Positions 21,041 through 53,890 of a DNA stretch of 64,000 nt are shown here, one piece after another. Numbering within the stretch: position 1 is the first letter of the stretch; the number at the start of each line of letters is the position of its first letter. The position numbers and the translations under genes were made by a program. The stretch is from contig CALFZE010000104.1 of the NCBI GenBank assembly GCA_937952285.1, positions 1,932 to 65,931 on the forward strand. The letters are read 5' to 3'. The stretch is from an uncultured Bacteriovoracaceae bacterium. Lineage in GTDB: Bacteria; Bdellovibrionota; UBA2428. The notes beneath the pieces were generated by a model. The model searched no databases, was not told the DNA's origin, and saw only the letters and a list, made by a program, of their open reading frames with translations.

Positions 21041-21070
21041 CTTGAACGGCGAAGTTTGCCGCCGTTCAAG
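21041..21070. terminator. Hairpin between convergent gpmA and pif1
   Basis: Perfect 11-bp stem CTTGAACGGCG/CGCCGTTCAAG with an 8-nt loop. No strong U-tract. Confidence 0.5.
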
Positions 21071-22355
21071 TCTCGGCCGTGTCCGCGATCAGGCTTCGAT
21101 GGAAGGCCGCGACCTGCGGATCGGCAAAAATCGATTTTGCGTCCCAGCCGTCGACCGTAAGGTGCTCCGAACTGCGCACGCGGCTAAGCGCGACGTAGGC
21201 TTGGCCCGGCTCCCAAAGCTGCTTGAGTGAAACGATCGCGCGATCGATGGTCGCGCCCTGCGCTTTGTGGATCGTCACGGCGTAGGCCAAGTTCAGCGGC
21301 AAGTTGCGGGCCGCCGCGCGCTCGTTACCCTCGGCATCGAGGATAGAGAACCGCGTCGCTTCGATCTGCGCTTGCTGCCCGTTCATGAGCTCGACGTCCA
21401 CGCTCGTCGCGTTCATCTCGCGCACGAAACCGAGGCTGCCGTTCACCCAACGCCCACGCGGGTCATTCTGGCGGATCATGACGAGGGCCCCGAGCTTGAG
21501 TTCCAGGACTTCGGGCACCGGGGCCTGGGCGACCAGAGTCGCGCGCAGGCGTTCGTCGCCGGAGTAGCTCGTTTCGTAAGTTCGCGGGGTACCCGTCAGC
21601 TTATCGAGGCGGCGGCGGTTGATGGCATCGACGTCGGCCTTCTTGGCGTAAAGGGCCGTCGCCTCGGAGATCTCGTCGCCGGGATTCTTGGAGCGCCACT
21701 CGAGCAGATTACAGACGCGTTCGCTCGCGTGACCGACGCGCACGTCGGCCAGGAACTCGCAGTAGTCCACGTCGCCCTTGGCGCGCATCATTTCGGTCAG
21801 GTGCACCGAGCGGAACTCCGTCGCGGCCCAAGCTTTCGAGAGGAAGGCCCAGTCGCGTTGGCGCGAATCGCGCGAGACCGGCGGCAGCTGCGCGAAGTCC
21901 CCCACGGCCACGACCTTTAATCCGCCCCAGGGGCGAGGATCGTCCCGCACGAGCGAGGCGATGCGCTCGGCCACCGCGAAGGCGAGGCCCGGAATCATGG
22001 AAACCTCGTCGAGCACGAAGCCTTGCGCCTTCTTGAGACGCCGCACGACCCGACGGTCTTTGAGCGCGCGATCCACCGCCGCGTGCGGGCCGCCTTCGAG
22101 GATGCCCAGGCCAAAGAAGCTATGGAAGGTACGCCCGCCCACGAGCACCGCGGCCGCGCCCGTGCTCGCGAGCACGGGAAACTTGAGCGCGTCGAGCCGC
22201 CGCAAGTAAGCCCGCAAAAGATGACTCTTGCCCGTGCCCGCGCCACCGGTGATGAAGACGTTACCGTCTTCGGCGAGGTAACGGAGCGCGAGCGATTGCC
22301 CCTCGTTCAGATCACGATTGAGGGTCGCAAGCAGTTCCGGAAGGAGTGAGGTCAT
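21066..22355 (-). CDS. Pif1-family SF1B DNA helicase
   Basis: FITGGAGTGKS, TLHSF-like TFHSFFG, DEVSM, PWGG..VVAVGDFAQLPPV, LAYAVTIHKAQG and GQAYVALSR. Confidence 0.93.
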   Translation of the reverse strand: MTSLLPELLATLNRDLNEGQSLALRYLAEDGNVFITGGAGTGKSHLLRAYLRRLDALKFPVLASTGAAAVLVGGRTFHSFFGLGILEGGPHAAVDRALKDRRVVRRLKKAQGFVLDEVSMIPGLAFAVAERIASLVRDDPRPWGGLKVVAVGDFAQLPPVSRDSRQRDWAFLSKAWAATEFRSVHLTEMMRAKGDVDYCEFLADVRVGHASERVCNLLEWRSKNPGDEISEATALYAKKADVDAINRRRLDKLTGTPRTYETSYSGDERLRATLVAQAPVPEVLELKLGALVMIRQNDPRGRWVNGSLGFVREMNATSVDVELMNGQQAQIEATRFSILDAEGNERAAARNLPLNLAYAVTIHKAQGATIDRAIVSLKQLWEPGQAYVALSRVRSSEHLTVDGWDAKSIFADPQVAAFHRSLIADTAET

Positions 22356-22924: not shown

Positions 22925-22968
22925 AGGGCGCTTTGACCCCCGCCCTTCCAGGGATTATTTCCTACCGC

Positions 22969-23826
22969 GTGAATCCGGAATCCACGGCCGCCGCCGAACC
23001 CGTCGTCCATATTCGCGCCGATCGCGGGAACTGGGACTTCCACAATCTCGTCCGTGCCCCCATCCAGGAACTCGTTCAGTTCAAAGAGCTTATCCGGAAT
23101 ACCGTCGTTCGCGACATCAAGGTCCGTTACAAGCGCTCCGTCCTTGGGATCGCCTGGACGATCATCGCGCCGCTCATGCAAATGATCGTCATGTGGACGG
23201 TCTTCACGAAGGCCTTCCAGGTCTCGATGCCGAACTACGCCCTCTATCTCTTCAGCGGCATCATCACCTGGAACCTCTTCTCGCAGTCTTCCGTGGCGGG
23301 CGGCGCCTCGATCCTGGGCGCGGCCGGGCTCATCACCAAGATCAAGCTCCCCCGCGTGCTCTTCCCGCTCACCGCGGTCATCAATAACCTGGTGAACTTC
23401 AGTTTCGCCTTCGCCGCCCTGCTTCTGCTGATGGTCGTCACGCGCGCGCCCTTCCATTGGACGATGCTGAGCGTCCCCTTCATGCTGCTGCCGCTCATTC
23501 TCTTCTGTATGGGCTGGGCGATGCTCGTTTCGGCGCTTTCCGTGTTTTTCCGCGACCTGCAGTACATCCTTGAGATCGCGCTCGGCGCGCTCTTCTACGC
23601 GACGCCCATCTTCTGGGATCCCACGGCCCTGCCCGCGAAATGGCATTGGGTCGCGTCGGTCAACCCGCTCGCCAAGTACGTCTTCATGATGAAGGCCAGC
23701 ATCTACCACGGGGTCCTGCCGAACTTTTCGACCTATGCCATCGCGACCTTCACCGGCCTGGCGATGTTTGTGATCGGCTGGATCGTTTTCCAACGCCTTC
23801 AACGCAAATTCATCTACTGGATCTAG
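22969..23826 (+). CDS. wzm: Polysaccharide ABC transporter permease
   Basis: RDIKVRYKRSVLGIAW, FFRDL..I, FYATPIFW and NPL. Six hydrophobic segments. The start (GTG 22969 or TTG 22933) is uncertain. Confidence 0.95.
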   Translation: MNPESTAAAEPVVHIRADRGNWDFHNLVRAPIQELVQFKELIRNTVVRDIKVRYKRSVLGIAWTIIAPLMQMIVMWTVFTKAFQVSMPNYALYLFSGIITWNLFSQSSVAGGASILGAAGLITKIKLPRVLFPLTAVINNLVNFSFAFAALLLLMVVTRAPFHWTMLSVPFMLLPLILFCMGWAMLVSALSVFFRDLQYILEIALGALFYATPIFWDPTALPAKWHWVASVNPLAKYVFMMKASIYHGVLPNFSTYAIATFTGLAMFVIGWIVFQRLQRKFIYWI

Positions 23827-23829
23827 ACG

Positions 23830-24585
23830 ATGGCGACTTCTTCTTTGCTCACCACCCCGGCCGTCGAGCTCAAAGGCGTCGGCGTTCGCTACCAACTCAA
23901 TCTCGAGAAGGTCTTTTCTCTTAAGGAACTCCTCGTCTCGAAAGCGACCAGACTAGGTCGTCAACTCCGGGGTAGAGAGCAACAAAAAACCCGGCGAACG
24001 GCTGACGATTTTTGGGCCATCCGAGATATCTCCTTCTCCGTTCCCCGCGGCGTATGTATCGGCCTTACCGGACGTAATGGTTCGGGCAAATCGACTACAC
24101 TGAAAGTCATTTCCGGCGTACTGCACCCCACCGAAGGTGAACTTTGGGTACGAGGGCGCGTCTCGGCACTTATTGAACTAGGCGCGGGTTTCAACCCTGA
24201 TCTCACAGGCCGCGAAAATATCTACTTCGGCGCTTCCGTTTCGGGCCTATCTCGCGCCGAAACGGCCAAGCGCATCGATCGCATCGTGGATTTCGCCGAA
24301 CTCCGCGACTTCATCGACATGCCAGTTCGTAACTACAGCTCGGGCATGTACGCACGACTTGGTTTCGCGCTCGCGACGGACGTCGATCCAGATCTGCTTA
24401 TCGTCGACGAGGTTCTCTCCGTCGGCGACGCCCCCTTCCAGCAAAAATGTAAAGATCGCATGGAAAGTTTCAAAAAACGCAACAAGACGATCCTATTCGT
24501 AAGCCACGATCCACAAGCCATCCAAGATTTCTGCGATACTACGATTGAACTCAAGGACGGGCGCATCAACTCTCCAAACCCGTGA
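23830..24585 (+). CDS. wzt: Polysaccharide ABC transporter ATPase (no C-terminal CBM)
   Basis: GRNGSGKST, GFNPDLTGRENI, YSSGM.ARLGF, DEVLSVGD..FQQK and FVSHD. Confidence 0.96.
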   Translation: MATSSLLTTPAVELKGVGVRYQLNLEKVFSLKELLVSKATRLGRQLRGREQQKTRRTADDFWAIRDISFSVPRGVCIGLTGRNGSGKSTTLKVISGVLHPTEGELWVRGRVSALIELGAGFNPDLTGRENIYFGASVSGLSRAETAKRIDRIVDFAELRDFIDMPVRNYSSGMYARLGFALATDVDPDLLIVDEVLSVGDAPFQQKCKDRMESFKKRNKTILFVSHDPQAIQDFCDTTIELKDGRINSPNP

Positions 24586-24597
24586 TAAGAATCAAGA

Positions 24598-26007
24598 GTG
24601 AGTCGCACCTCCCTCATTTTCATCTGGCTTGCTTTCGCTGCGTGGCTGACCATTCTCGTCGCAAAGTCGATCCCGTTACCCGTCGCCCCCGGCACCGATT
24701 TCTGGTCCCTCTCTGCCTCGGAGATTCTCGCACAAGCCGGATACTCAGATTACGGTAGCTACATTAAATACGCTCGTATTCTCGCGAGCGGAGCACTGAA
24801 CAGCCCCCACGAAGATGCGTGGGTCACGAACATCTGGCCTCCGGCCTTTCCCTTGGTGATCGCCTTTCTCTTAAAGACAGCCGGTGAAGCAAGCTACGGA
24901 TTCAAACTGGGTATCTTGACCGTACTCGCCTGGGCCACCGTCCTGACCCATTTCCTCAAGAACGTCCCCTTCCTCAGATCCACTTGGGCACGTTTTCTCG
25001 TTCTTGCGTCTGTTTGCGCCTTACCCGAGTTTCGTCAATGGAGTTTCGGCACAGGTATTCTGATGACGGAATCTCTTTCGATGGCTCTCTTCGTTTTGGC
25101 GGGCGCTTTTTTCTACAAGGGAATCTCGGGTGACGGCCGCAAAGCCTATCTCATCGGAACCTTGTTTCTCGGCCTCTCCGCTAACTTCAAAGCCCTCTTG
25201 GATGGTGTCTTCGGCCTTCTTTTCCTGGCCTTGCTTGGGGGACTTGCCTTCGTTGCCCTCCTTGAGCACCGAATCATTCCACTTTGGATCGAGGAAGCCG
25301 AACGACCACGTTTTCGCGCACGTTTGCCTGACCGCATTCCTGCCATGAAAACCGTTTTTCTTTGTTTCCTTGTCCTTGGGGCCACCACGGCGCCTTGGAA
25401 GATGCGCAATTTTTTACACAATGGACCCTACGCGATGTCACCGCTTGGCCTTGATCTCAACTGGGAATACCAGTGGTCGCCAACCGATAAACTTGCAGGA
25501 TTCGTGCACGCGGGTAACACGGCCTGCGCCGTAAACCCGGCCCCTTGCCCGATCATCTACGAAAACCGCCACGCCTGGGGTCCGAAAGTACTCCGCTCGC
25601 TCGTCCTCGGTAGCCTCATGGCGAACCCCAGTGCATGGATTCGCTATCGTCTCGAACGAGTGAATTGGCTTTGGGTTGGAGTCCCTTGGCCCAAGAACTT
25701 TGAAGAGGCAAAAAGAACTTTCTTTCTATACGTTGAAGGATTTGCGTATATCGCCGCCGCCGCTTTCGGGCTCTGGCTCCTTTTGAAACATTGGCGAGCT
25801 CGAAGAGCACGATGCTTGAGCACAGAAGATCTCGAACGGCTCGGTCTTCTTTTCGCTCTTTTTTTCGGGATCCACGCGGCAAGCTTTCTAATCTTCCACT
25901 TCGAATCCCGCTATTCACTCTTTTGGCGAACTTCTTGCTTCCTGTTTTTGGCGTTCGTAGCCGCACGTAGAGCAACCCAAGAAAACGAACGATCCGTCGC
26001 AACCTGA
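24598..26007 (+). CDS. Multi-TM membrane protein, GT-C/ArnT-PMT-like
   Basis: Many TM segments, an acidic motif in the first outer loop (SDYGSY), WPPAFP, MTESLS and a C-terminal RY motif. Confidence 0.65.
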   Translation: MSRTSLIFIWLAFAAWLTILVAKSIPLPVAPGTDFWSLSASEILAQAGYSDYGSYIKYARILASGALNSPHEDAWVTNIWPPAFPLVIAFLLKTAGEASYGFKLGILTVLAWATVLTHFLKNVPFLRSTWARFLVLASVCALPEFRQWSFGTGILMTESLSMALFVLAGAFFYKGISGDGRKAYLIGTLFLGLSANFKALLDGVFGLLFLALLGGLAFVALLEHRIIPLWIEEAERPRFRARLPDRIPAMKTVFLCFLVLGATTAPWKMRNFLHNGPYAMSPLGLDLNWEYQWSPTDKLAGFVHAGNTACAVNPAPCPIIYENRHAWGPKVLRSLVLGSLMANPSAWIRYRLERVNWLWVGVPWPKNFEEAKRTFFLYVEGFAYIAAAAFGLWLLLKHWRARRARCLSTEDLERLGLLFALFFGIHAASFLIFHFESRYSLFWRTSCFLFLAFVAARRATQENERSVAT

Positions 26008-26010
26008 TGG

Positions 26011-26550
26011 TCAGCCTTTCAAGAGGTATGCCTTAAAAGCAGATGTTTTACGTTGATACGCCTCGCGCTCAGCAAAGTAAAACTGAAGATCCAAATCTTC
26101 TTGTCCTTCGGCTAGGACAAATCCAATGGACCGGTTGAACCGAATAGCTCGTGTATTCTCCTTGAGAATATGCGCCCGTAAACGCTTAAGACCGAGAACA
26201 TCAAAACCAAAATCGTACATCGCAAATGTCGCCGCCATACCAACCGGGGTATTCCACAGATCTGAACGGGCCACGTAAATACCGCCTTCTCCTTCACCCT
26301 TCTCAAAGTCACAGTCCTTAATATTTACGACGCCGACCGATTCCCCACGCCATTGGATGACGTAATAGTACTGCGTACGAAAATCGAGGGAATGAAACCA
26401 AGCGGTCTGCATCTCGGCGGAGATATGCCCCCGAAAATTCATGTAGCGGGAAACTTCAGGACTATTGCGCCATGCACGCACGGACTCAAGGTCATCGGCC
26501 CCCATGCGAGTCAAAACGACGCCATATGCTTCGATCGAAGAATGTTCCAT
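26011..26550 (-). CDS. GNAT N-acyltransferase (PseH-like)
   Basis: VRAWRNSPEVSRYM, GEGGIY, FGFDVLGLKRLRAHILKENTRAIRFN..GF. TGATG coupling to the luxC-like gene. Confidence 0.85.
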   Translation of the reverse strand: MEHSSIEAYGVVLTRMGADDLESVRAWRNSPEVSRYMNFRGHISAEMQTAWFHSLDFRTQYYYVIQWRGESVGVVNIKDCDFEKGEGEGGIYVARSDLWNTPVGMAATFAMYDFGFDVLGLKRLRAHILKENTRAIRFNRSIGFVLAEGQEDLDLQFYFAEREAYQRKTSAFKAYLLKG

Positions 26551-27728
26551 CAACCTGATCCAAAAGAGGTGCGAGTGAAAAGTTGACTCCACCATTCTTC
26601 CCCGTCCCAAACCGGACCGAAATCGTGCATCTGGGCCAGGGGAACAAACCGACTAGCTTGCGAGCGCGCGAGAGCCGCCGTGTAATGCGTATCAAAGGGG
26701 TCGCGGAGGGCATAACCGATAGTTTGCAAATTCGGAGCCGCCGTCGAAATAGCATCCTCGAGATTACCCCACTGCAGTTCAATCCCGAGATTCGACCAAG
26801 CGAAGGAAATTTTCGCCGGAGCGAGTACAAGAAGAGCCGCGTTGTTTCCCACGATCCGGCTTTCGAAGCCATTCGCACGAGCCCACTGGAGCCCGAGAAA
26901 ATTCTGACTAGCCTGGTGCTGATCGACCGTGGTCAAAGCGGCCGACTCCCAAGCCATTTCCATCTTACGCGCGAGATCAACAGCATCTTCCCGCTTTCCG
27001 CCGACTAACATGATCCGTTGGGGCGAAGTGCAACCAGCCTGGCCGTAAATGGAGAAAATCTTGACAAGCGACTCCACGGTATCCGGCCGAGATGCTTCCG
27101 ACGGCTCGATCCAGGCCTCGGATACCCGATGGGTAAAATAAAAGCCTCGGCTCGATGTCGGATGGGACAACGCCTCGATCCCCTTGGCAGCCTCATCACC
27201 TCCGAAAAGGATACGCACGTCGGACGACGACGCCATTTCTGCGTTTCGAGGATCGATCCGATCGAATACGGCAACCGAGACGCGCCCACGAAGCCATTCC
27301 GCAAGCGGGCCCGGGGAACTACGACTCGCCAAGTATTCCACAAAGGCTCCACAAAGGTCGCGACCACGGGAACCAATTTTGACCGAGAGATGAGCTCCCG
27401 TAAGCGAAATAAGTACCACAGCGAGCGGACCTAATAGGCTGACGTTATTCGGCAGCCATAGCCCCACCCGCTCCCGCGGACGGAGGAGTCCGATCGGAAT
27501 CCCCTCCCCACTTTCGGGACCGAAACTCCGATGAAAGACCTCGCTTAGATGCCCTGCTTCCAGAAAACGGATGAGATAGGCCCACTCCGTCCGGGTAAAA
27601 TCGGGGTGGCGTTCACGAATCATTTTACGGCGAACAGTTTCGTAATTCTCGAGAAGTGCATCGAGAGAAAAAGACAGCGCGATGGCGACACGACCGCCAT
27701 CGCGTCCGTAAAATCGGAGCTCAGACAT
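26550..27728 (-). CDS. LuxC-like acyl-CoA/acyl-protein reductase
   Basis: WLPNNV, ILFGGDEA, and a catalytic-Cys region YGQAGCTSPQ typical of the LuxC (ALDH-fold) family. Confidence 0.75.
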   Translation of the reverse strand: MSELRFYGRDGGRVAIALSFSLDALLENYETVRRKMIRERHPDFTRTEWAYLIRFLEAGHLSEVFHRSFGPESGEGIPIGLLRPRERVGLWLPNNVSLLGPLAVVLISLTGAHLSVKIGSRGRDLCGAFVEYLASRSSPGPLAEWLRGRVSVAVFDRIDPRNAEMASSSDVRILFGGDEAAKGIEALSHPTSSRGFYFTHRVSEAWIEPSEASRPDTVESLVKIFSIYGQAGCTSPQRIMLVGGKREDAVDLARKMEMAWESAALTTVDQHQASQNFLGLQWARANGFESRIVGNNAALLVLAPAKISFAWSNLGIELQWGNLEDAISTAAPNLQTIGYALRDPFDTHYTAALARSQASRFVPLAQMHDFGPVWDGEEWWSQLFTRTSFGSG

Positions 27729-28767
27729 TCGCGCAACCTCTCAACTCGGCCTTCGGCATGCGCCCTATGAGTTCGAAGCGACGACCGCGACGACCGCAAG
27801 GACACGGGCCCGGGATCAGTCGACCGATATCTTCGGTCAGGATGTTGTGGTACGGCGCGCCTCTCGAAATCGTGTTTATCAGCTGAAGCTGGCCGTCCCC
27901 TTCCGGAAGAGCCGCCAATGTCCACGGATCGCGCACCAGGACGTCTCCCCAAGCCGGTACGTGCCGGGCGCCAAATTCACACATGGGATAAACCATTCCG
28001 ACCTGTTCGACGAGACCATAGTAGTCCACGACTTTCGAACCGGGCGCAGCGCGAGTCAGAAGGACTCTCTCAAAATCGGCGCGATCAACTCGCGCATTCT
28101 CGAGTTTCTTCCAGCCTCCGCTATGCACAAAGGTGATCGTTCGCGTTCTTAAATCCGATTCGATATCGGCTGGCATCGTCCGATTCGCCCAAGCCATCCA
28201 AAGTGCCCAAGAGATACCATAAACGAGAAGGGGGCCCGGTTGCTTGAGAGCGCAACGAATCTGCTCTTCGTTCAGGCTCGCGGCGTCCGACGCATCCTTG
28301 AGGACAAAAAAAATCTCCGTCGCGAAAGGCTTCAGCGACATAGCCGCCAAAACGCGAGCCGAAAGCCCTTCGCGGCTCCGTAGGGAAGCGACGCCGTCTA
28401 GTACGAGGAGAGGCCGGGTTTCGCGGCCCACAAAGTCCTCCAGAATCCGAAGCGAACTCAACGACTGCAGCCGCGAGCTTTCTTCGTCGAGGGTGATCTC
28501 GCTCGCGACTCCCGAAGTCGAAGACGAACGAACGATACGACCGTGCACGATACCTTCGCCCTTCGTGATCAAACGCAGACGCTTAAAAAGACCCACGTGA
28601 AGGAAAGGCGCCTCTTCTACACTCGAAATTCTTGGAACTTTGCCGAGGATGGATGCGTAGGCAGGACAGCCACGGAAGTGCAGTTCATTCAATTCCGTGA
28701 GCCGATCCAAGAAGGCGCGCTCGTCGCGTTCCCCGTAAACTACCGTATCCGAAACCCAGGAAGACAT
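27721..28767 (-). CDS. LuxE-like acyl-protein synthetase
   Basis: SSSTSG loop, HSGGWKK, DYYGLVEQ, ILTEDIG, CPCGRRG and C-terminal ELRGC. Confidence 0.88.
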   Translation of the reverse strand: MSSWVSDTVVYGERDERAFLDRLTELNELHFRGCPAYASILGKVPRISSVEEAPFLHVGLFKRLRLITKGEGIVHGRIVRSSSTSGVASEITLDEESSRLQSLSSLRILEDFVGRETRPLLVLDGVASLRSREGLSARVLAAMSLKPFATEIFFVLKDASDAASLNEEQIRCALKQPGPLLVYGISWALWMAWANRTMPADIESDLRTRTITFVHSGGWKKLENARVDRADFERVLLTRAAPGSKVVDYYGLVEQVGMVYPMCEFGARHVPAWGDVLVRDPWTLAALPEGDGQLQLINTISRGAPYHNILTEDIGRLIPGPCPCGRRGRRFELIGRMPKAELRGCANV

Positions 28768-29711
28768 CAGGTCTCGCCTTCCTCGGGCAAGAACGTCCGA
28801 AAGAAGTCCAGTGAATCCGCCCGTACGAGGGCACAGTTAATTCGCGCCAGGGGCTGACGAAGAATAAGGGACCAGCTGGACTCAATCGTCGGCATCCAAC
28901 GGCGATAGTCGGCTTCGTCGAAAAAACGCCTCAGCATGGCCCGGCAGTCGCCGAGCGGAATCCCATGCTTCCGGAAAAGGTCGTCTACTTTAGATCCGCG
29001 GGATCGATTGTAATCAAAAACAGGCAAAAGGAGTGTCGAGCAGAGCCGTGCGTGGCCCACGGATTCCTTCGCATCACGCTTCAGAGTGGGTTCAATCTGG
29101 TGGGCGATCGCATGTATAAGTCCGACGCCCGAGCGAGATTGCAAAGAGCAAGCCTTTGCGGAAGCCTCGAACCAGGCAAAATCGCCGGTTCCCGGTTCAA
29201 GAGGGAGAAGAACGTCTCGAATAAAAGAGGCCATTTCTTCTCTCAACGCATCATTTGAGAGCGGAGACAGGAACCCTTCGAGAGCGTGAGACCATGCGTC
29301 ACCAGCGCCCCACAACGCCGCCTCCGGCGGAATCAGCTCGGTCAACTCACGCGAGTAGGCCCGAGCATCGGGCAGAAAATCCGGCCCCATCTTGATGACT
29401 TTTACGTCGCCCTCGTTGAGAACCGCAATCGGAGAATTCTCGGCCCCGCTTCCCCAAAGGGAAGGCACGACGACCATCCAAGTATCCGGGCTAAGCTCTC
29501 GGCGCCAGACTTTAGCTCGATCAATCAAAGACCCGCCTCCGACCACAACTAGGCGAGCTAAACCCGAACGAGGAGTCTCGATCGAAGCGACAACTTCGAA
29601 AGGCAGACGAGCCGAAACGAACGCGACTAGCGACCTGGACGTCCAACAAACCGTGCCTTCCTTTGGAAGATCCGTGAGGGTGGCCCAGTCGACAATCGGC
29701 GACTCATTCAT
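28767..29711 (-). CDS. Iron-containing alcohol dehydrogenase family protein
   Basis: VGGGSLIDRAK, PSLWGSGAE, and metal ligands in DAWSHALE, GLIHAIAH and GHARLC. Confidence 0.85.
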   Translation of the reverse strand: MNESPIVDWATLTDLPKEGTVCWTSRSLVAFVSARLPFEVVASIETPRSGLARLVVVGGGSLIDRAKVWRRELSPDTWMVVVPSLWGSGAENSPIAVLNEGDVKVIKMGPDFLPDARAYSRELTELIPPEAALWGAGDAWSHALEGFLSPLSNDALREEMASFIRDVLLPLEPGTGDFAWFEASAKACSLQSRSGVGLIHAIAHQIEPTLKRDAKESVGHARLCSTLLLPVFDYNRSRGSKVDDLFRKHGIPLGDCRAMLRRFFDEADYRRWMPTIESSWSLILRQPLARINCALVRADSLDFFRTFLPEEGET

Positions 29712-29952
29712 CGAAACGAATCCCCTTCTCGGTCAGGATCTCGATGATGTCCGACACCGAGGCAATACCGACAGCCTGCTCGGGCGCGAAATGGTATCCG
29801 AATGTTTCCTGAATACCGACGGCCATCGAAACCACCCCCAACGAGTCCCAAGTGGCGATGTCGGTCTTCTTGAGATCGAAATGAAACTCGTCTTCATTGA
29901 GCATGAAAACTTCCAACAAGAGAGATTTCAGTTTCTTGCGATTCTCGTTCAT
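29704..29952 (-). CDS. Acyl carrier protein
   Basis: 82 aa, acidic, with the WDSL phosphopantetheine-attachment motif. Confidence 0.9.
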   Translation of the reverse strand: MNENRKKLKSLLLEVFMLNEDEFHFDLKKTDIATWDSLGVVSMAVGIQETFGYHFAPEQAVGIASVSDIIEILTEKGIRFDE

Positions 29953-29967
29953 ATCGACCTCAGACCG

Positions 29968-31173
29968 TCAGCGATACTGTTTCCAAACGACCGTTTTGCC
30001 TTCCAGTGACGCAAGCGACTTGGCATCGGGCTTTCCATTCGCCAGGAAGGGGATATCATCGACCGATTCTATGCGAACGGGCCAATGAGGACGACGGAAT
30101 TTTTCACGGAAGACGCCGAAAATCCCCCTTAATTCCATTTCGCTGGGCCTCGGAGCCACGACCAAGACGTGTCCCCATTGCCCGTCTTTTTCTTCTTCGA
30201 GGTAAAAAGCGAAAGATCGCTTCCATACTTGCCGCAAGGCATCACCTATGACCTGAAGCGATATCTTCTCGCCAAAGCGCTTGAATACTTCGTTGCCACG
30301 TCCGACGATCCGCCAGAGGTTTTCTCCCGCGCTCTCCCCGACATCGCCGGTCGGGATCCATTCACCGACTCCGAAAGAACGAAGACCCTGCGCATCGGCC
30401 ACGGCCAGAGCTCCGTAGGGGCTGCGAAAGTGAAGGGCTCCGCCTTCCGCCACGTGCATTTCGACGCCCGGCAATGGCCTTCCTAGGATCGCCGCATCTT
30501 CCACCGTTTCGATCTTCCGGATCGTGAGTCGCGGCAAGGCCTCGGTACAGCCGAAGTTGTTATATATATCGGCACGAGGAAAAAGATCGCGGAGATAATC
30601 AAGGTCGCCAGCCGGGAAAACGCCGCCCGCGAAATTCACTCGAATCACTTCCGGGAAACGGCGGCCCGGAGAAAAATAACGCCGCATAAGAGAAACCTGC
30701 GAGCCCACGAGACAAACCATGCTCGCGGGAGATCGATCGAGCGTCTCGGCCCAACCTTCGGGATCAGCAAGCCCCGCGGTCGGGATCAACGGACGGCCAA
30801 AGACATTCGACCAGATCCATTGGTTCACCAGACAATAGGAGTAAGTAAAGGGCAGAGACGACACGGTCGTCTGAACGACTTCGAGCGACTGATGTTCGTG
30901 GATGACATGCGCCAAGGCTTCCGCGCGGGACTTAAGCCCCACGACGAGTTTCGGCGCTCCCGTACTTCCCGACGTCAAAAGGGCAAAACATCCTTCAGGG
31001 AATGCGGCGTCCACTTGTCCCAGGGTACGATCAAACCATGCGCTATCTACCGACGCAGGTTCCTGAACGAGAATCAAGCTCTCCTTCTCCCGCCAAGCCG
31101 CGCGAAGTCCCTCGAGACCTGCCCGCGTGCTTTCGAGATTTTGATGCAAGGCGGGAAACTTCAAGATCTGCAT
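29968..31173 (-). CDS. AMP-dependent acyl-CoA/acyl-ACP ligase
   Basis: LLTSGSTGAPK, NNFGCTEA, IPTGDVG, GRGNEVFKRFGEKIS and NGKPD. Confidence 0.88.
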   Translation of the reverse strand: MQILKFPALHQNLESTRAGLEGLRAAWREKESLILVQEPASVDSAWFDRTLGQVDAAFPEGCFALLTSGSTGAPKLVVGLKSRAEALAHVIHEHQSLEVVQTTVSSLPFTYSYCLVNQWIWSNVFGRPLIPTAGLADPEGWAETLDRSPASMVCLVGSQVSLMRRYFSPGRRFPEVIRVNFAGGVFPAGDLDYLRDLFPRADIYNNFGCTEALPRLTIRKIETVEDAAILGRPLPGVEMHVAEGGALHFRSPYGALAVADAQGLRSFGVGEWIPTGDVGESAGENLWRIVGRGNEVFKRFGEKISLQVIGDALRQVWKRSFAFYLEEEKDGQWGHVLVVAPRPSEMELRGIFGVFREKFRRPHWPVRIESVDDIPFLANGKPDAKSLASLEGKTVVWKQYR

Positions 31174-31181
31174 TTCGCCCC

Positions 31182-32132
31182 TTAGATCACTTCAGCGATC
31201 GAGGTTTGGGGGCGTTGGGTCGCCATCGCTAACAAGCGACGTAAGTATTCACCGATAACGCCTATGCAGAGCAAAATCAGGCCCGTCGAAAGAAAAATAC
31301 TCGCGATCACCGAAGTAAAACCAAGGGGTGCCCCAAAGAAGAGCTTCTTCGCAACGAAGAACGAACCCGCAAGAAAACTGAAGCCCGACATGAGAAGCCC
31401 CAAAAAAACGACCGCTCGCAGGGGAAGCGTCGTATAGTCGAAGACTAGACGACTCGCCATTCGCACGAGGCCCCAAATTCGATAACCAGATTCCCCAGAT
31501 ACACGTTCCCGATGCTCCACGACTACCGAAGTGACCGACCGTGTGTGCCACGAAACGAGGCCATCGAGATAAAGAGAACTCTGACTGAACTTAGTGAGCT
31601 TTTCGTAGAGCGACCGCCGAAGGAGACGAAAAGAAGATGCCTTCACTTTGCTCTCGAACGCGTAACTAAGAATACGTTGGACCCCGCGACTTCCGAGATT
31701 TCGGAGCGAACCATGTTTCTTCTCAGCGTAAACGCCATATACGAGATCGAAATTCCCTTCCTTCTGACGTTCCCGAAGCTTGAGGATTTCCGAAGGGGGC
31801 GTCTGTAGGTCATCGTCGATCGTGACCGCGAACTCTCCGCGCGCGAAGCGAAAGCCGCAAAGAGTAGCGTTGTGCTGACCGAAGTTCCGCGCCAAACGAA
31901 CGCCGCGAACCCTCCCACCCGAGGCATCGCACAACGAAACGATCGTTTTCCAGGTGCCGTCCATACTCCCGTCGTCCACGAAGATAACTTCGTAGGTGAG
32001 GCCTGCCGACCGGAAAACACGGTCCAGATGCTCCAAGAGATCGGCGAGCGTCCGCTCGGAATAATAGCAAGGGACGACCACGCTGTAGGCGATCCCAGAT
32101 TCGACGGTAGAGGGTAAAGTCTCAAGACTCAC
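31182..32132 (-). CDS. GT2 polyprenyl-phosphate glycosyltransferase (GtrB/ArnC-like)
   Basis: SVVVPCY, VDDGSMD, RNFGQHNA...G, TIDDDLQTPP, two C-terminal TM helices and IGVIGEY. Confidence 0.9.
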   Translation of the reverse strand: MSLETLPSTVESGIAYSVVVPCYYSERTLADLLEHLDRVFRSAGLTYEVIFVDDGSMDGTWKTIVSLCDASGGRVRGVRLARNFGQHNATLCGFRFARGEFAVTIDDDLQTPPSEILKLRERQKEGNFDLVYGVYAEKKHGSLRNLGSRGVQRILSYAFESKVKASSFRLLRRSLYEKLTKFSQSSLYLDGLVSWHTRSVTSVVVEHRERVSGESGYRIWGLVRMASRLVFDYTTLPLRAVVFLGLLMSGFSFLAGSFFVAKKLFFGAPLGFTSVIASIFLSTGLILLCIGVIGEYLRRLLAMATQRPQTSIAEVI

Positions 32133-32286
32133 GGCTATTGGGAAGTCCTATTAGATACGAGGGGTTTGGGCAAATCCTACCCCGGCGACAGACCTCGAAC
32201 GAGAGGGACAGACGACCCAAATCTCCCCTGGACGAGGCTTGAGAAGTTCCGAGTCATTGTTATGGTGTCCTACGGATGGAATCCGC

Positions 32287-33423
32287 ATGACGGCTAAAAT
32301 CAGCTTCAATCGCCCTACCTTAGCCGGCCGTGAGATGGAGTATCTCGAGCGGGCGGTTCGCAACGGACACATCTCCGGGGACGGGGAGTTCACCCACCGC
32401 TGCCAAAGTCTCCTCGAGCGGGAACTCGGCGCCCGGAAAGCCCTTCTCACGACGTCCTGTACGGACGCCCTCGAAATGGCTGCGATTCTTCTGGACGTCC
32501 AGCCCGGAGACGAAGTCATCGTTCCTTCCTTCACTTTTGTTTCGACGGTCAACGCCTTCGTCCTAAGGGGCGCCAAGCCTATTTTCGTGGACGTTCGTCC
32601 GGATACCCTGAACCTCGACGAACGGCTGATCGAAAAGCATCTATCGCCTCGAACAAAAGCCATCGTCCCCGTTCACTACGCCGGCGTTGGCTGCGAAATG
32701 GACGCCATCCTCGAGATCTCCGCGAAGTTGAAAGTGCCGGTGGTCGAAGACAACGCCCATGGGCTCTTCGGATCTTACCGCGGCCGCCCGCTAGGCTCGT
32801 TCGGATCCCTCGCTACGCAAAGTTTCCACGAAACCAAGAATTTCTCCTGCGGAGAGGGTGGGGTCCTTCTTATAAACGACGAAGCTTTCGTGGAAAGGGC
32901 TGAAATCATCCGCGAAAAGGGAACGAATCGGTCCCGCTTCTTCCGCGGCCAAGTCGACAAATACGGATGGGTCGATCTTGGATCCAGCTTCTTGCCCTCG
33001 GACTTGCTGGCGGCCTATCTTCTCGCCCAACTCGAAGCGAAAGACACGATCCAGAGCAAACGGGAACGTATTTGGAACCGCTATTCCGAAGGCCTGCACG
33101 ATTGGGCGGAACGATCGAACGTTTCTTTGCCCCACATCCCGAAGCACTGTGGGCAAGCCTTCCATATGTTCTACATGTTGCTCCCGAATCTTGAAATACG
33201 CCAACGCCTTATCGCGCATCTCAAAGCACAAAACATCTTGGCGGTTTTCCACTACCTCCCCCTGCACGCATCCGAATTCGGACGCAAGCTAGGAGGCCAT
33301 CCGGGTCAATGCCCCGTAACGGAAGACGTCAGCGACCGCCTACTACGCCTGCCATTTTACAACGACCTTTCGCCCGAAGACCAAGCACGGGTCATCGAAG
33401 TCGTAACGAGCTTCGAAGTTTAG
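32287..33423 (+). CDS. wecE: dTDP-4-amino-4,6-dideoxygalactose transaminase (WecE/RffA-like, DegT family)
   Basis: LLTTSCTDALEMAA, PVHYAGV, EDNAHG, SFHETKN..CGEGG, REKGTNR..FFRGQVDKYGW and FHYLPLH. Confidence 0.9.
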   Translation: MTAKISFNRPTLAGREMEYLERAVRNGHISGDGEFTHRCQSLLERELGARKALLTTSCTDALEMAAILLDVQPGDEVIVPSFTFVSTVNAFVLRGAKPIFVDVRPDTLNLDERLIEKHLSPRTKAIVPVHYAGVGCEMDAILEISAKLKVPVVEDNAHGLFGSYRGRPLGSFGSLATQSFHETKNFSCGEGGVLLINDEAFVERAEIIREKGTNRSRFFRGQVDKYGWVDLGSSFLPSDLLAAYLLAQLEAKDTIQSKRERIWNRYSEGLHDWAERSNVSLPHIPKHCGQAFHMFYMLLPNLEIRQRLIAHLKAQNILAVFHYLPLHASEFGRKLGGHPGQCPVTEDVSDRLLRLPFYNDLSPEDQARVIEVVTSFEV

Positions 33424-34998: not shown

Positions 34999-35472
34999 AT
35001 GAATAAGCCCTCTTATTTCGTCCATCCCCAAGCTCTCGTCGACGAAGGCGCGCAGATCGGCGAAGGTTCTCGCATCTGGGCCTTCGCCCACGTCCTCGGC
35101 AAGGCGCGCCTCGGGCGCAACTGCAACATCTGCGACCACACCTTCGTCGAGAACAACGTCGTGATCGGGGACAACGTCACGCTCAAGTGTGGCGTCTACC
35201 TTTGGGACGGACTCATCGTCGAGGACGACGTCTTCATCGGACCCAACGCGACCTTCACGAACGATAAGCATCCGCGCAGCGGCAACCGCGATTTCAAACT
35301 CCTGCAGACTCGCATCGGACGAGGCGCGAGCCTCGGAGCGAACTGCACGATCCTGCCGGGCATCCAGATCGGCGCGGGCGCCGTCGTGGGAGCCGGAGCT
35401 GTCGTGACCAAAGACGTCCCCGCGGGCGCCACGGTCGTCGGCAACCCGGCGCGAATTCTCCGCGCCAAGTAG
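34999..35472 (+). CDS. Hexapeptide-repeat sugar N-acetyltransferase (FdtC/WxcM-like)
   Basis: IGEGSRIWAFAHV, CNICDHTFVEN, VFIGPNATFTNDKHPRS and VVGNPAR. Confidence 0.92.
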   Translation: MNKPSYFVHPQALVDEGAQIGEGSRIWAFAHVLGKARLGRNCNICDHTFVENNVVIGDNVTLKCGVYLWDGLIVEDDVFIGPNATFTNDKHPRSGNRDFKLLQTRIGRGASLGANCTILPGIQIGAGAVVGAGAVVTKDVPAGATVVGNPARILRAK

Positions 35473-35475
35473 CCT

Positions 35476-36741
35476 TTAAAGATTGGGGCCCCACTGGACC
35501 GGGGCACAGCCTTCCGCGCTAAAGCCCCGCGATAAGACGCGGGCACGCGGAGCGGGGCGACGAATCGCCGTACTTCCGAGCATCGCTTCTACGCGATTAC
35601 CGAAGGTATGGCGCGCTTTGACCACGGCCAAAGCACGCGTCGCCAGACGCGTAGCCTTTTCCCGATCACGCACGACCTCGACGACACGCTCGCGCGCTTC
35701 CTCAGGAGAGTCGTAGCCCAGGAACTCGCCCTCTTCCTCGAAGAGTTCGTCGAGCTCTTGGTGGCGATCCGTGACGAGCGGCGTTCCCGACGCCATGATG
35801 TCGAAAATCCGGATCGGAAATCCGCTCTTGGCCTGGTGGTGCGCGATGCTGATGCAAGCGCGCGACCCCTGGTAAAGTTTAGCGAGTTCCTCGCTCTTAC
35901 CGATGGGCGCGAGACGAAAGCGCGACATCAAGCGGGGACTAAAGACCGGGGCCAGATTCATCCAACTCCAACGGGTCCCGTGGATACGAAGGTCGAGATC
36001 CGACAGCGCGGACAAAACCTCGAGACGCTTGCGCGTCGAAAGAAAGTCATCGATCGCGTTCAAAATTTCACGGGGGTCAAGCACGGGCCCAAAGCGGCTT
36101 CCGACATCGGCCACGACATCCCGCATGTCATCTTGTTCGTAGGCTTCCACGATATTCAGGAAAGCGACGAGATCTTGATCGTTCTTCGCGACCTGGCGGA
36201 GCAAACTCTGAAAGCCCGACGGTTCCCACAGCGTCCCCACGAAGGAAACGTCGCAAACCTTAAGGGGAGCCGGCGTGGGACATTCGAACAAAGCGGGATC
36301 ACAACAAAAGGGAAGGTAATGAAGTTGGCCGGCGCCCAAATCAGGGTGGAGCGCGCAAACCTGCTCGATCATGAAGCGCGTCGCGCAGAAGATCCGGTCC
36401 GTCGACTTGAACTGACGGAGCGAAGCCGGAAAGCGGCCCGGATTGTCGATGTACCAATAATGGACTTGGACGTTCGTCGAGAACTCGCTTCGCACGGCCC
36501 CTACGAGTCCGGCCCCATTGAGCGAAACGACGGCTTCCGGCGCGAAATCCCGGATCGCGGCCAACACGCGGCCTTTATCCTGGGGCGATCGGAACTCGCC
36601 CTCCCAGTTCATGAAGTCCGTCGTCTGGACGAAGAGAAATTCTTCGCTTCGACGCGCCAGTTCCGAAAGAAGTTCCTGTCGGAAAGGATCCAACCGCGAG
36701 TTGGATTCCATGTAGTTATCCGAAAGGAACAACAGCCTCAT
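35476..36741 (-). CDS. GT-B glycosyltransferase (CgeB/Glyco_trans_1_2-like)
   Basis: YLPFCCDP, DVSFVGT, and C-terminal RIFDIMASG..LVTD....LF and HTF.NR. Confidence 0.8.
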   Translation of the reverse strand: MRLLFLSDNYMESNSRLDPFRQELLSELARRSEEFLFVQTTDFMNWEGEFRSPQDKGRVLAAIRDFAPEAVVSLNGAGLVGAVRSEFSTNVQVHYWYIDNPGRFPASLRQFKSTDRIFCATRFMIEQVCALHPDLGAGQLHYLPFCCDPALFECPTPAPLKVCDVSFVGTLWEPSGFQSLLRQVAKNDQDLVAFLNIVEAYEQDDMRDVVADVGSRFGPVLDPREILNAIDDFLSTRKRLEVLSALSDLDLRIHGTRWSWMNLAPVFSPRLMSRFRLAPIGKSEELAKLYQGSRACISIAHHQAKSGFPIRIFDIMASGTPLVTDRHQELDELFEEEGEFLGYDSPEEARERVVEVVRDREKATRLATRALAVVKARHTFGNRVEAMLGSTAIRRPAPRARVLSRGFSAEGCAPVQWGPNL

Positions 36742-37859
36742 CGCGCCAAAGACCCTACGGTCTCCTGAAGGGCTGCGGCAACGACGCGCGCGTCCGCTTC
36801 CGAAAGGTGCGGTCCGATCGGCAGACTCAAAAGCGTCGCGGCCGACTCTTCCGTCACCGGAAAGCTTCCTTGACGATAGCCAAGATCTTCGTAGGCTTTC
36901 GCAAGGTGGCAGGGGATCGGATAGTGGATTAGCGTCTGGATGCCACGCTTGGCCAGCTCAGCTTGGACTTCGTCTCGACGCGGAACCTGGACGGTAAAGA
37001 GGTGCCAAGAGCTCTGAACGCCCGGGCGCAGCTTCACGCAGCGGATAACGGGGTTTCCGGCGAAAGCCTTCGAATAGAGATCCGCCAAGCGCTGACGGCG
37101 CAGGTTCCACTCATCCAAGTGCTTGAGCTTGACCCTCAGGAAAGCCGCTTGGAACTCATCGAGCCTCGAATTGAAGCCCTTCAAATCGTGGTGGTACTTT
37201 TTCGAGGATCCGTAGTTACGCAGCTTCTGGATGCGTTCGAAAACCTCGCGGTCATTCGTGCAAATCGCTCCGCCATCCCCGAAAGCGCCCAGGTTCTTGC
37301 CCGGATAGAAGCTGAAGGCGGCGCAATCGCCGAAGGCGCCCGCGCGTTTCCCGTCCACGGCCGAGCCGTGCGCTTGGGCGGCGTCTTCGATGACCTTGAT
37401 TCCGTGCTTACGAGCGACCTGAACGAGGGCCGGCAAGTCTCCCATGTGACCGTACAAGTGAACCGGGATGACGGCCCGGGTCTTGGGCGTGATTGCCGCC
37501 TCAAAACCGGCCGCCGACATCTGAAGATCCTGGGGATCCACGTCGACCGCGACCGGGATCGCGCCCACGTCCGAAACGGCCAACCAGGTGGCGATAAAGG
37601 TATTGGCCGGCACGATGACCTCGTCGCCTCTGCCCACGCCGAGCGCCAAGAGCGCCATTTTCAGGGCATCCAGGCCATTCGCCACGCCGAGACAGTGAGT
37701 CGTCCCGCAATACTGCGCGAACTCCGCCTCGAAGGCTTCGAGCTCGCGACCCATGATGTACCAACCGCCCCCCAGGACTCGGAGAGAAGCTTCGTCGCAC
37801 TCTCCTTTCAGTTCCGTGTAGGTACTGAGCAAATCGAGGAAAGGCACTTTCGTAAGCAC
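36738..37859 (-). CDS. fdtB: DegT-family aminotransferase (FdtB/QdtB-like)
   Basis: GVANGLDAL, PVHLYG, EDAAQAHG, FSFYPGKNLGAFGDGG and NSRLDE. Adjacent to fdtA. Confidence 0.88.
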   Translation of the reverse strand: MLTKVPFLDLLSTYTELKGECDEASLRVLGGGWYIMGRELEAFEAEFAQYCGTTHCLGVANGLDALKMALLALGVGRGDEVIVPANTFIATWLAVSDVGAIPVAVDVDPQDLQMSAAGFEAAITPKTRAVIPVHLYGHMGDLPALVQVARKHGIKVIEDAAQAHGSAVDGKRAGAFGDCAAFSFYPGKNLGAFGDGGAICTNDREVFERIQKLRNYGSSKKYHHDLKGFNSRLDEFQAAFLRVKLKHLDEWNLRRQRLADLYSKAFAGNPVIRCVKLRPGVQSSWHLFTVQVPRRDEVQAELAKRGIQTLIHYPIPCHLAKAYEDLGYRQGSFPVTEESAATLLSLPIGPHLSEADARVVAAALQETVGSLAR

Positions 37860-40277: not shown

Positions 40278-40950
40278 GCAAGCCATGCTGCGCACCGTCG
40301 TCCAGAAAACTCGCGATTTCCTGAAACGCATTTCCCGCCATTCGCGTTCCCAGGCCTATTGGAAGAAGGCGACAACGACTTTTCTCGCGCCGCCCGAATA
40401 CTATGATCGTCAGGAAGCCATTATGCGGGAAAGCCTTTTCCCGCGTTTGCCCGACGGGGGCGCCGTACTGGACATCGGCTGCGGTAATGGGCGTTTTACC
40501 TTGCTCTTCGCCGAACGCGCGCGCAGCGTCCTGGGCATCGATATTTCGCCTTCGCTCGTCGCCGAAGCGACGAAGATCGCCGCCGAGCGCAACCGCGCGA
40601 ACGTCGAGTACAAGACCATCGATCTCCTGAAAGAAGAGATCCATGGCGTTTTCGACGTCGTCTCTTGCCTCGGCGTGACGTCTTGCATCGCGAACGAAGA
40701 CCTCTTTCGCAAGACCGTCCGCCGTTTGCAGACCCTCGCTCGACCCGATGGCTACGTTGTCACGAAGGAATCCCTGAGCCTGGCCAATGACGACGTTCAC
40801 GAATCCAACGGCTACGTTGCGACCTATCGCAATATCGACCGCTACCTGAAAGAATTCGAAGGCGTGGGACTGCGCCTCGATCACGAGATCGAGCTCGCCA
40901 ACTTCAGCGGCAAAACAAACCGTTTCTTCGTCTTCCGAAAATCGCCCTAA
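40270..40950 (+). CDS. Class I SAM-dependent methyltransferase
   Basis: VLDIGCGNGRF, GIDISP and FDVV motifs. The start may be ATG 40285. Confidence 0.85.
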   Translation: MSEQAMLRTVVQKTRDFLKRISRHSRSQAYWKKATTTFLAPPEYYDRQEAIMRESLFPRLPDGGAVLDIGCGNGRFTLLFAERARSVLGIDISPSLVAEATKIAAERNRANVEYKTIDLLKEEIHGVFDVVSCLGVTSCIANEDLFRKTVRRLQTLARPDGYVVTKESLSLANDDVHESNGYVATYRNIDRYLKEFEGVGLRLDHEIELANFSGKTNRFFVFRKSP

Positions 40951-53855: not shown

Positions 53856-53890
53856 ATCCTTCCCCGCGGACGTAGTCTGGGGGAAGGATG
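53856..53890 (+). promoter_or_regulatory. RBS/start-codon-sequestering hairpin
   Basis: ATCCTTCCCC pairs with GGGGAAGGAT, which includes the SD and the AT of ATG 53888. Inner stem CGGAC/GTCTG. Confidence 0.5.

Follow-up and report, generated by a model that had tools for sequence, protein, structure and literature searches.

Background

Genes VC0248-VC0252 of Vibrio cholerae O1 (wbeK-wbeO, also named rfbKLMNO) have been assigned by homology to the synthesis of tetronate (3-deoxy-L-glycero-tetronyl), the N-acyl group of perosamine (PMC3441752). This C4 dihydroxy-acid is the sole N-acyl group on the perosamine of V. cholerae O1. Normal production of the O-antigen depends on it, as does infection by phage ICP1 (PMC3441752). 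We describe here a related cassette of six genes, encoding an AMP-binding ligase, an acyl carrier protein (ACP), an iron-containing alcohol dehydrogenase (Fe-ADH), a LuxE-type and a LuxC-type protein and a GNAT acyltransferase, in DNA of an uncultured Bacteriovoracaceae bacterium (contig CALFZE010000104.1). The whole stretch analysed, 64,000 nucleotides (nt) long, is called the window and all positions are given in its coordinates; the cassette spans 26011-31173 on the minus strand. We consider it fairly probable that the six genes constitute a factory for an acyl donor together with the transferase for a non-acetyl N-acyl amino sugar, a pathway of which we infer every chemical step from sequence. 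The literature searched on this cassette, on wbeKLMNO and on LuxC/LuxE in polysaccharide loci offers homology-based statements only, and no biochemical study.

Organization of the cassette

The open reading frame (ORF) list and the Pfam and NCBIfam profile searches agree on the six tightly coupled minus-strand genes reported in a preliminary description of this DNA (a ligase, an ACP with a WDSL motif, an Fe-ADH, LuxE, LuxC and a PseH-like GNAT), and place them at the same coordinates. In the direction of transcription they are:

29968-31173, minus strand: AMP-binding (ANL) ligase, 401 amino acids (aa), putative acid--ACP ligase and WbeL homologue (PF00501, E=2.9e-15)
29704-29952, minus strand: stand-alone ACP, 82 aa, with a WDSL motif, WbeK homologue (PP-binding/ACP models match weakly)
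28767-29711, minus strand: short Fe-ADH-like protein, 314 aa, WbeM homologue (PF00465, 28.5 bits, just under the cut-off of 31.3)
27721-28767, minus strand: LuxE-type acyl-protein synthetase, 348 aa, homologue of the N-terminal half of WbeN (PF04443, 125 bits)
26550-27728, minus strand: LuxC-type acyl-thioester reductase, 392 aa, homologue of the C-terminal half of WbeN (PF05893, E=3.8e-16, 59 bits)
26011-26550, minus strand: GNAT N-acyltransferase, PseH/RimL-like, 179 aa (PF13302, E=1e-17; best NCBIfam match TIGR03585, PseH, 74 bits against a cut-off of 93)

From the ligase to the GNAT, the junctions consist of a 15-nt gap followed by overlaps of 8, 1, 8 and 1 nt, the last of which is formed by the GNAT start codon (ATG at 26550) and the stop of the LuxC gene. 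The same GNAT length of 179 aa was called on a contig of a metagenome-assembled genome (MAG) with the same cassette (L001) and in Massilia (L002). A TTG start at 26610 (ORF 26011-26610) was rejected, the ATG at 26550 being preferred as it matches these two calls.

Loci were compared by tblastn, four of them genomic and 80 metagenomic. The arrangement of the six genes is not due to chance, because the order ligase-ACP-ADH-LuxE-LuxC is preserved in every one of the 36 related loci whose sequence extends far enough and recurs in Massilia, Ramlibacter, Parahalioglobus and a Bryobacteraceae contig. No luciferase-like ORF, no luxAB (as had been stated beforehand) and no luxD acyl-transferase was found among the about 50 window ORFs scanned with Pfam, a scan that was not exhaustive. 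Sequencing runs, one of which held 9% of the sampled words, gave no transcript evidence for the cassette.

Comparison with the V. cholerae O1 module

The V. cholerae O1 locus was found with an O1 rfb primer, which led to a sequence ending inside wbeN (L010), and the full locus (L095) was obtained by a search with this partial WbeN. The 19-nt primer (GTTTCACTGAACAGATGGG) lies within wbeN in V. cholerae; it also has exact matches in seven unrelated archaeal or bacterial MAGs (L004-L009, L011), about what is expected by chance in 596 Gb. The gene order of the full locus is GDP-mannose dehydratase, DegT aminotransferase, glycosyltransferase, Wzm, Wzt, WbeK, WbeL, WbeM, WbeN and WbeO, which confirms that genes for an ACP, a ligase, an Fe-ADH, a LuxC/LuxE-like protein and an acyltransferase are present in V. 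cholerae O1. WbeL has 471 aa and WbeM 374 aa, WbeN is a LuxE-LuxC fusion of 825 aa (L095:8001-10478) and WbeO has a weak Hexapep match.

The preliminary description had looked to the Wbe proteins for homologues, and every cassette protein except the GNAT indeed matches its counterpart, with 22-33% identity (blastp):

LuxE and the N-terminal half of WbeN: 31% identity over 316 aa, E=2e-45
Fe-ADH and WbeM: 27% identity, E=6e-15
LuxC and the C-terminal half of WbeN: 22.5% identity over 315 aa, E=2e-12
Ligase and WbeL: 23% identity, E=1e-7
ACP and WbeK: 33% identity, E=8e-5

Between the window GNAT and WbeO no similarity was detected by blastp.

Like the cassette, the V. cholerae O1 module comprises a WDSL ACP, an ANL ligase, an Fe-ADH, LuxE and LuxC, followed by an N-acyltransferase, and the catalytic motifs are common to both. 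Moreover, both adjoin Wzm/Wzt in a polysaccharide locus of the ABC-transporter type that contains a DegT aminotransferase. The two differ in gene order, the ACP and the ligase being swapped (ligase-ACP-ADH-LuxE-LuxC in the window, ACP-ligase-ADH-LuxE/LuxC in V. cholerae). As noted earlier for this DNA, LuxE and LuxC are separate genes, with an overlap of 8 nt, where V. cholerae has a single WbeN, and a GNAT stands in the place of WbeO, which is of the hexapeptide type. The window ligase is without about 70 N-terminal residues of WbeL (401 against 471 aa) and the ADH is also shorter than WbeM at the N-terminus (314 against 374 aa). The aminotransferase in the window is of the WecE type, whose products are dTDP-4-amino-4,6-dideoxy-galactose or -glucose (dTDP-Fuc4N/Qui4N), and is 25% identical to WbeE, whereas V. 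cholerae has a GDP-perosamine synthase; this argues for an acceptor in the window that differs from GDP-perosamine. In addition, an ArnC-like family 2 glycosyltransferase (GT2) and an enzyme of the GT-C fold flank the window cassette, unlike the V. cholerae O1 module.

The fused LuxE-LuxC proteins of the WbeN type form a second large clade of more than 1750 homologues, including those of Vibrio, Bacteroidales and Flavobacteria. Many homologues in Bacteroidales and Flavobacteria are about 50% identical to WbeN, and tetronate-like modules may be common in the glycans of Bacteroidota.

Motifs and nearest relatives of the cassette enzymes

In the ligase the motifs A3 (TSGSTGxPK), A5, A7 (GD), A8 (GR..E..K) and A10 (GK) are invariant, WbeL included. 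A search of the PDB identified ACP-loading enzymes as its closest solved relatives, namely FadD10 (4ir7) and aminoacyl-ACP synthetases of the VinN type. The phosphopantetheine-site motif of the ACP, W35-D36-S37-L38, is invariant in five cassette ACPs (that of the window and four others) and in V. cholerae WbeK. The Fe-ADH has the GGG nucleotide motif and the metal ligands D138/H142/H200/H220, which are invariant and common to WbeM, and its PDB matches are Fe-ADHs, maleylacetate reductase and lactaldehyde reductase.

The LuxE-type protein matches the LuxE of P. phosphoreum (7xc6_E, E=2e-13), with the lysine of the GGWK motif aligned and with its C-terminal RGC345 aligned to KGC364, the acylation site of 7xc6_E. 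Cysteine 345 is invariant in 25 family members. In the luciferase-associated enzymes the C-terminal cysteine of LuxE passes the acyl group to a cysteine of LuxC (PMC9157457). The LuxC-type protein, which gave no match against the PDB with phmmer, contains the motif YGQAGC233TSP, invariant in five cassette LuxC sequences; Cys233 is likely to be the catalytic cysteine, an assignment made by analogy to Cys296 of LuxC and not by direct alignment to a solved LuxC.

The GNAT has as PDB relatives MJ1062, SpeG, PseH (4xpk) and the sugar N-acyltransferase FdhC (5kta), the last of which depends on 3-hydroxybutanoyl-CoA. Orthologues with 48-51% identity are found at this position of the cassette in both Massilia and Ramlibacter.

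Distribution and variants

The window LuxE has more than 1300 homologues, with 52-62% identity among the matches listed. They come from Massilia, Ramlibacter, Parahalioglobus, Terriglobales and Bryobacteraceae, and most bear no functional name. The same cassette region is present on a contig of MAG GCA_002343545.1, with a LuxE product that is 100% identical. Compared with the counterparts in Massilia, Ramlibacter, Parahalioglobus and Bryobacteraceae, the cassette proteins of the window are 36-73% identical, and they fit the lengths typical of the family (about 395, 81, 305-314, 347 and 391 aa for ligase, ACP, ADH, LuxE and LuxC).

The gene that follows LuxC, on the other hand, varies among the 47 loci in which it was classified:

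33 of 47 loci: a protein of 232-248 aa with no Pfam match, WecD-like
4 of 47 loci: a PseH-like GNAT, as in the window
1 of 47 loci: an ArnC-like GT2
9 of 47 loci: none of GNAT, WecD-like protein or GT2

Six of the last nine loci (L025, L027, L031, L033, L034 and L041) have at this place a MaoC hot-dog protein, a hydratase/dehydratase type of 136-138 aa, which in five of the six is followed by a NeuD/VioB-type hexapeptide transferase of 222-224 aa; none was seen in L041. These loci hint that the carrier-bound acyl chain may there also be hydrated or dehydrated. The remaining three (L067, L083 and L084) have none of these transferase types directly after LuxC, and L067 has a GNAT-like ORF two genes downstream. 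Overall, a gene of the N-acyltransferase type follows the core, directly or past one MaoC gene, in at least 42 of the 47 loci, often with overlapping stop and start codons. Judged from these sequences, the five-gene core behaves as an acyl-donor module that is paired with different sugar N-acyltransferases, since the transferase after LuxC varies while the order of the five genes holds.

Members of the 232-248-aa family (L014:12212-12910, L012:12209-12955 and 31 further loci within L016-L093) have no match in Pfam or NCBIfam. The family profile matches E. coli WecD, the TDP-fucosamine acetyltransferase (2fs5/2ft0), over nearly the full length with E=9e-4, and these proteins are probably WecD-like two-domain GNATs that use the acyl donor made by the cassette.

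The gene set itself is not new, because the cassette is widespread; in V. cholerae, a set of this kind has been known since the 1990s. What differs here is the split and shortened architecture, the GNAT or WecD-like transferase, the probable dTDP-4-amino-4,6-dideoxyhexose acceptor, and a genetic setting that resembles the carrier-lipid route of Arn and includes a GT-C family without annotation.

Genes flanking the cassette

The cassette is bordered on both sides by genes that could take part in the use of its product:

31182-32132, minus strand: ArnC/GtrB-like GT2, putative polyprenyl-phosphate glycosyltransferase, 316 aa (PF00535, E=8e-27)
32287-33423, plus strand: WecE-type dTDP-4-amino-4,6-dideoxyhexose transaminase, divergent from the cassette operon
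24598-26007, plus strand: polytopic membrane protein of 469 aa with a GT-C fold, third and last gene of the Wzm-Wzt operon, convergent with the cassette
23830-24585, plus strand: Wzt (PF00005), 37% identical to Wzt of V. cholerae O1
22933-23826, plus strand: Wzm, ABC-2 exporter (PF01061)

The GT2 gene is located 8 nt upstream of the ligase gene and is the seventh gene of the cassette transcription unit, and its first in the direction of transcription. The best NCBIfam match of its product is ArnC (PRK10714, E=2e-42), with 145 bits against an equivalog cut-off of 529, and the next is PgfS. Hydrophobic segments at its C-terminus were read by eye from the sequence. In 14 of the 32 loci for which 4 kb or more of context is available, homologues of this GT2 adjoin the cassette.

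The transaminase scored above the cut-offs of both WecE models (NF008687, 574 bits, cut-off 375; TIGR02379, 539 bits, cut-off 435). Orthologues with 51-68% identity are placed beside the cassette in Bryobacteraceae, Massilia and Parahalioglobus, which represent three other phyla-level lineages, and a WecE-like gene is near the cassette in 12 of the 32 loci with context. On the opposite strand, ORF 32151-32663 (minus strand, 170 aa, arginine-rich) lacks a Pfam match and shadows the WecE-type gene, and it was not accepted as a gene.

The stop of the 469-aa protein gene is 3 nt from that of the GNAT gene. Neither this protein nor 50 members of its family have a Pfam match, and a word-indexed search returned only the protein itself, while an exhaustive HMMER search detected 128 relatives in a representative library at 50% clustering. 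Its AlphaFold model (pLDDT 94.5, pTM 0.93) gave top Foldseek matches in the PDB that are all GT-C enzymes (STT3, ArnT, DPY19, AglB, EmbB and ALG9), with a probability of 1.0 for the best one and TM values of 0.38-0.46, which is a match at the level of the fold only. An aspartate in the first loop, D51, is invariant in the family. From the model, the protein looks like a member of an unannotated GT-C family.

Related loci carry other genes of this kind. PMT_2-type GT-C genes are near the cassette in 8 of the 32 loci with context, YfhO and GtrA occur in individual genomes, with GtrA genes in the cassette loci of Ramlibacter and Parahalioglobus, and in Bryobacteraceae-like contigs the GT2, the WecE-type gene, the core and the WecD-like gene form one block opposite a PMT_2 gene. 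The idea that the window GT-C family is the same as the PMT_2-type GT-C of these loci was dropped, as hhalign gave a probability of 3%; the fold assignment alone stands.

Proposed pathway

In the route that we propose, the short ANL ligase would adenylate a small dicarboxylic or hydroxy-dicarboxylic acid, of the class of malate, succinate, malonate or 2-hydroxy/2-oxoglutarate, and load one of its carboxyl groups onto the WDSL ACP. LuxE would adenylate the remaining free carboxyl and hold it as a thioester on Cys345, and LuxC would take the acyl group on Cys233 and reduce it with NAD(P)H to an aldehyde. The Fe-ADH would convert the aldehyde to an alcohol, giving an omega-hydroxyacyl-ACP, for instance 2,4-dihydroxybutanoyl- or 4-hydroxybutanoyl-ACP. 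The GNAT would transfer the hydroxyacyl group to the 4-amino group of the dTDP-4-amino-4,6-dideoxy-galactose or -glucose made by the WecE-type transaminase. The ArnC-like GT2 would then probably move the acylated sugar onto undecaprenyl phosphate and, after flipping, the GT-C-fold protein would attach it, outside the cytoplasm, to the surface polymer exported by the ABC transporter.

A route from a dicarboxylate to an omega-hydroxyacyl amide fits the gene content, because two carboxyl activators, a thioester reductase, an ADH, a carrier and an N-acyltransferase are all present. The transfer of a short hydroxy-acyl group, built from a dicarboxylic or hydroxy acid, onto an amino sugar had been put forward in the preliminary description, and it is consistent with the homologies, from which it would follow only by inference. 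The V. cholerae set accompanies a 2,4-dihydroxybutanoyl group, which is malate with the distal carboxyl reduced. By analogy, the product here may be a short omega-hydroxyacyl group, with 2,4-dihydroxybutanoyl, 4-hydroxybutanoyl, 3-hydroxypropanoyl or a C5 analogue as candidates. The acceptor is most likely the product of the WecE-type enzyme, a dTDP-4-amino-4,6-dideoxyhexose, and the ACP, rather than CoA, would carry the donor. Delivery through a polyprenyl-phosphate carrier is suggested because the ArnC-like GT2 and the GT-C-fold protein bracket the cassette.

Several points weigh against this pathway. The literature searched gives no assay of any enzyme of the split cassette or of wbeKLMNO, so that the route rests on homology, and the 22-33% identity to the Wbe proteins speaks for shared families and order, not for a shared substrate. 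The GNAT resembles enzymes that use acetyl-CoA (PseH, SpeG), and its use of an acyl-ACP would be a departure from them. GT2 enzymes of the ArnC type normally act on UDP-sugars, whereas the WecE products are linked to dTDP. With regard to the last steps, the window GT-C protein has no profile relationship to the PMT_2-type GT-C of related loci, and no small flippase of the GtrA or ArnE/F type was recognised near the cassette in the window. Moreover, the polysaccharide locus that holds the Massilia cassette has Wzz but no ArnC-like gene, hence the carrier-lipid route would not be obligatory.

Alternative explanations

LuxE and LuxC are the fatty-acid reductase of bioluminescence (PMC9157457), and the cassette might, like LuxCDE, reduce a medium- or long-chain fatty acid to an aldehyde or alcohol and provide the glycan with a lipid substituent. 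Papers on the Aeromonas and enterobacterial islands read their ACP, ligase, LuxE and LuxC (with FabG) in this way, as fatty-acid synthesis for a "liposugar" (PMC7874193, PMC4875605), and the best PDB match of the window ligase is the fatty-acyl-AMP ligase FadD10. However, once a monocarboxylic acid has been reduced to an alcohol it cannot form an amide, which would leave the ACP, the second adenylating enzyme and the N-acyltransferase coupled to them without a role, and neither a LuxD-type acyl-transferase nor a thioesterase was seen. In addition, the sole homologous locus of known product, that of V. cholerae O1, carries a C4 dihydroxy-acid (PMC3441752). The hydrophobic cleft of LuxC, more than 40 A long, holds a myristoyl group (PMC9157457); the window LuxC has 392 aa against the about 480 aa implied by the 55 kDa of LuxC (PMC9157457), and being shorter it may not retain this cleft. 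We regard a lipid tail as quite unlikely. The ligase might also load an amino acid, that is Asp, Glu or a beta-amino acid, whose side-chain carboxyl would be reduced to give a substituent of the homoseryl or hydroxynorvalyl type. Its top NCBIfam match is a generic amino-acid adenylation domain (E=1e-15, far under the cut-off) and its PDB relatives include beta-aminoacyl-ACP synthetases and an A domain of a nonribosomal peptide synthetase, but all these matches are weak and the V. cholerae product is a hydroxy-acid rather than an amino acid. In A domains that activate amino acids, the Asp binding the alpha-amino group is part of the A4 motif FDxS. The cassette ligase family has LPLTYSY at the A4 position and WbeL has MPLSHSF, which would resemble acyl-CoA-synthetase types; the missing Asp argues weakly against an amino-acid substrate. 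An amino-acid-derived side chain, which is a minor variant of the hydroxyacyl pathway, seems to us very improbable.

It could also be that the core and the GNAT are uncoupled, the latter being an ordinary N-acetyltransferase that uses acetyl-CoA on dTDP-Fuc4N/Qui4N, in the role of WecD, and the core having another product, for example an acyl group in O-linkage, a substituent that is an aldehyde or alcohol, or a precursor that serves other parts of the locus. The interchangeable sixth gene is in line with this, as are the three of 47 loci (L067, L083 and L084) without the listed transferase types directly after LuxC, and the nearest characterised relatives of the GNAT use acetyl-CoA; WecE and a WecD-like enzyme are, moreover, the classical acetylation pair. 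Nevertheless an N-acyltransferase-type gene is kept after the core in at least 42 of the 47 loci, and no O-acyltransferase, MBOAT or Acyl_transf_3 protein was found with Pfam adjoining the window cassette. V. cholerae shows the same pairing of core and transferase, with tetronate as the only N-acyl group on its perosamine (PMC3441752). Uncoupled functions therefore appear unlikely to us, and the coupled synthesis and transfer of a hydroxyacyl group remains the reading that we prefer.

A wider proposal can be built on this hydroxyacyl pathway, in which the cassette and its neighbours would form a self-contained, horizontally mobile decoration system of the Arn type that combines carboxylate reduction on the ACP, N-acylation of dTDP-Fuc4N/Qui4N, and installation on exported polymers through undecaprenyl phosphate and the unannotated GT-C. 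We put this forward tentatively, as a possibility with the chances rather against it.

The surrounding polysaccharide locus

The cassette is situated within a polysaccharide locus of about 27 kb of the ABC-transporter type, and its region is an island of lower G+C content (about 55%, against 64% in the flanks). Several GT2, GT1 and GT4 glycosyltransferase genes, a methyltransferase, short-chain dehydrogenase/reductase and RmlD-like enzymes and a UDP-GlcNAc 2-epimerase are also encoded in the locus. A TagF-like CDP-glycerol glycerophosphotransferase, a cytidylyltransferase and an HAD phosphatase follow each other at 40947-43520 (minus strand), which suggests that the same polymer bears glycerol phosphate or another polyol phosphate as a substituent, or includes an element resembling teichoic acid.

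Three DegT-family aminotransferases were identified in the window (32287-33423, plus strand; 36738-37859, minus strand; 53888-54994, plus strand), and a NeuD/PglB/VioB-type acetyltransferase (34999-35472, plus strand) is near the second of these. The surface polymer probably has at least two different amino sugars, with the cassette serving one alone. Given the second DegT/NeuD-type pair, plain N-acetylation of the second amino sugar would not call for the cassette GNAT.

A gene on the margin of the polysaccharide locus (50150-52036, plus strand) encodes a protein of 628 aa that has the domains DUF7657 and DUF7654. A PIF1-like helicase (21066-22355, minus strand) is placed 0.6 kb from the low-GC island and a tyrosine recombinase of the XerC/D type (5569-6483, minus strand) about 16 kb upstream; the window has no tRNA gene. 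A KdsD/KpsF-like gene, also present in the window, hints at a diderm.

Significance

The N-acyl groups that amino sugars carry act as dominant epitopes and as determinants of phage receptors. The cassette is a compact, split-gene version of the tetronate machinery, with interchangeable transferases and dTDP-Fuc4N/Qui4N as the probable acceptor. This makes it a tractable system for the study of carboxylate reduction linked to a carrier protein in glycan biosynthesis, for the annotation of many proteins now labelled as hypothetical or as "LuxE/PaaK family", and for the prediction of non-acetyl substituents from sequence. If the tentative decoration system were true, thousands of environmental bacteria would carry a class of glycan substituent that has not been described, and the split-gene cassette would offer a simpler setting in which to test the enzymology of cholera tetronate. 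Further leads for annotation come from the unannotated GT-C family and the WecD-like family.

Comparison with other known systems

The flagellin glycosylation islands of Aeromonas (group II) and Enterobacteriaceae also combine LuxC and LuxE, in the absence of other lux genes, with an ACP and an AMP-dependent ligase in a glycan locus (PMC7874193, PMC4875605). Likened by their gene descriptions, these islands carry a FabG-type short-chain dehydrogenase in place of the Fe-ADH. Their genetic links are to pseudaminic acid and flagellin, whereas the cassette is linked to a WecE-type transaminase and an ABC-exported polymer.

With the LuxCDE fatty-acid reductase (7XC6) the cassette shares the acyl-accepting cysteine of LuxE and the aligned GGWK lysine, and its LuxC keeps the likely catalytic cysteine. 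However, the cassette LuxC is far diverged and shorter, and in the cassette both enzymes are joined by an ACP, a second ligase, an ADH and an N-acyltransferase.

In the enterobacterial common antigen pathway, the WecE/WecD pair offers another parallel, as an equivalog of WecE adjoins the cassette and the sixth gene is WecD-like in most related cassettes. Both WecD and PseH transfer acetyl from acetyl-CoA, whereas the window GNAT is translationally coupled to an ACP-based pathway for the acyl donor.

The Arn system for L-Ara4N and the systems of the Gtr/CsbB-YfhO type follow the logic proposed for the window locus, with a DegT aminotransferase, N-acylation of the nucleotide amino sugar, an ArnC-like GT2 that would place the sugar on undecaprenyl phosphate and an extracytoplasmic GT-C. 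Compared with Arn, the aminotransferase in the window is of the WecE type and not ArnB (227 bits against a cut-off of 631), no ArnD deacylase or flippase was seen in the window, and a bespoke acyl group would take the place of the formyl group. The GT-C protein of the window, unlike those of the Arn and Gtr systems, comes from an unannotated family.

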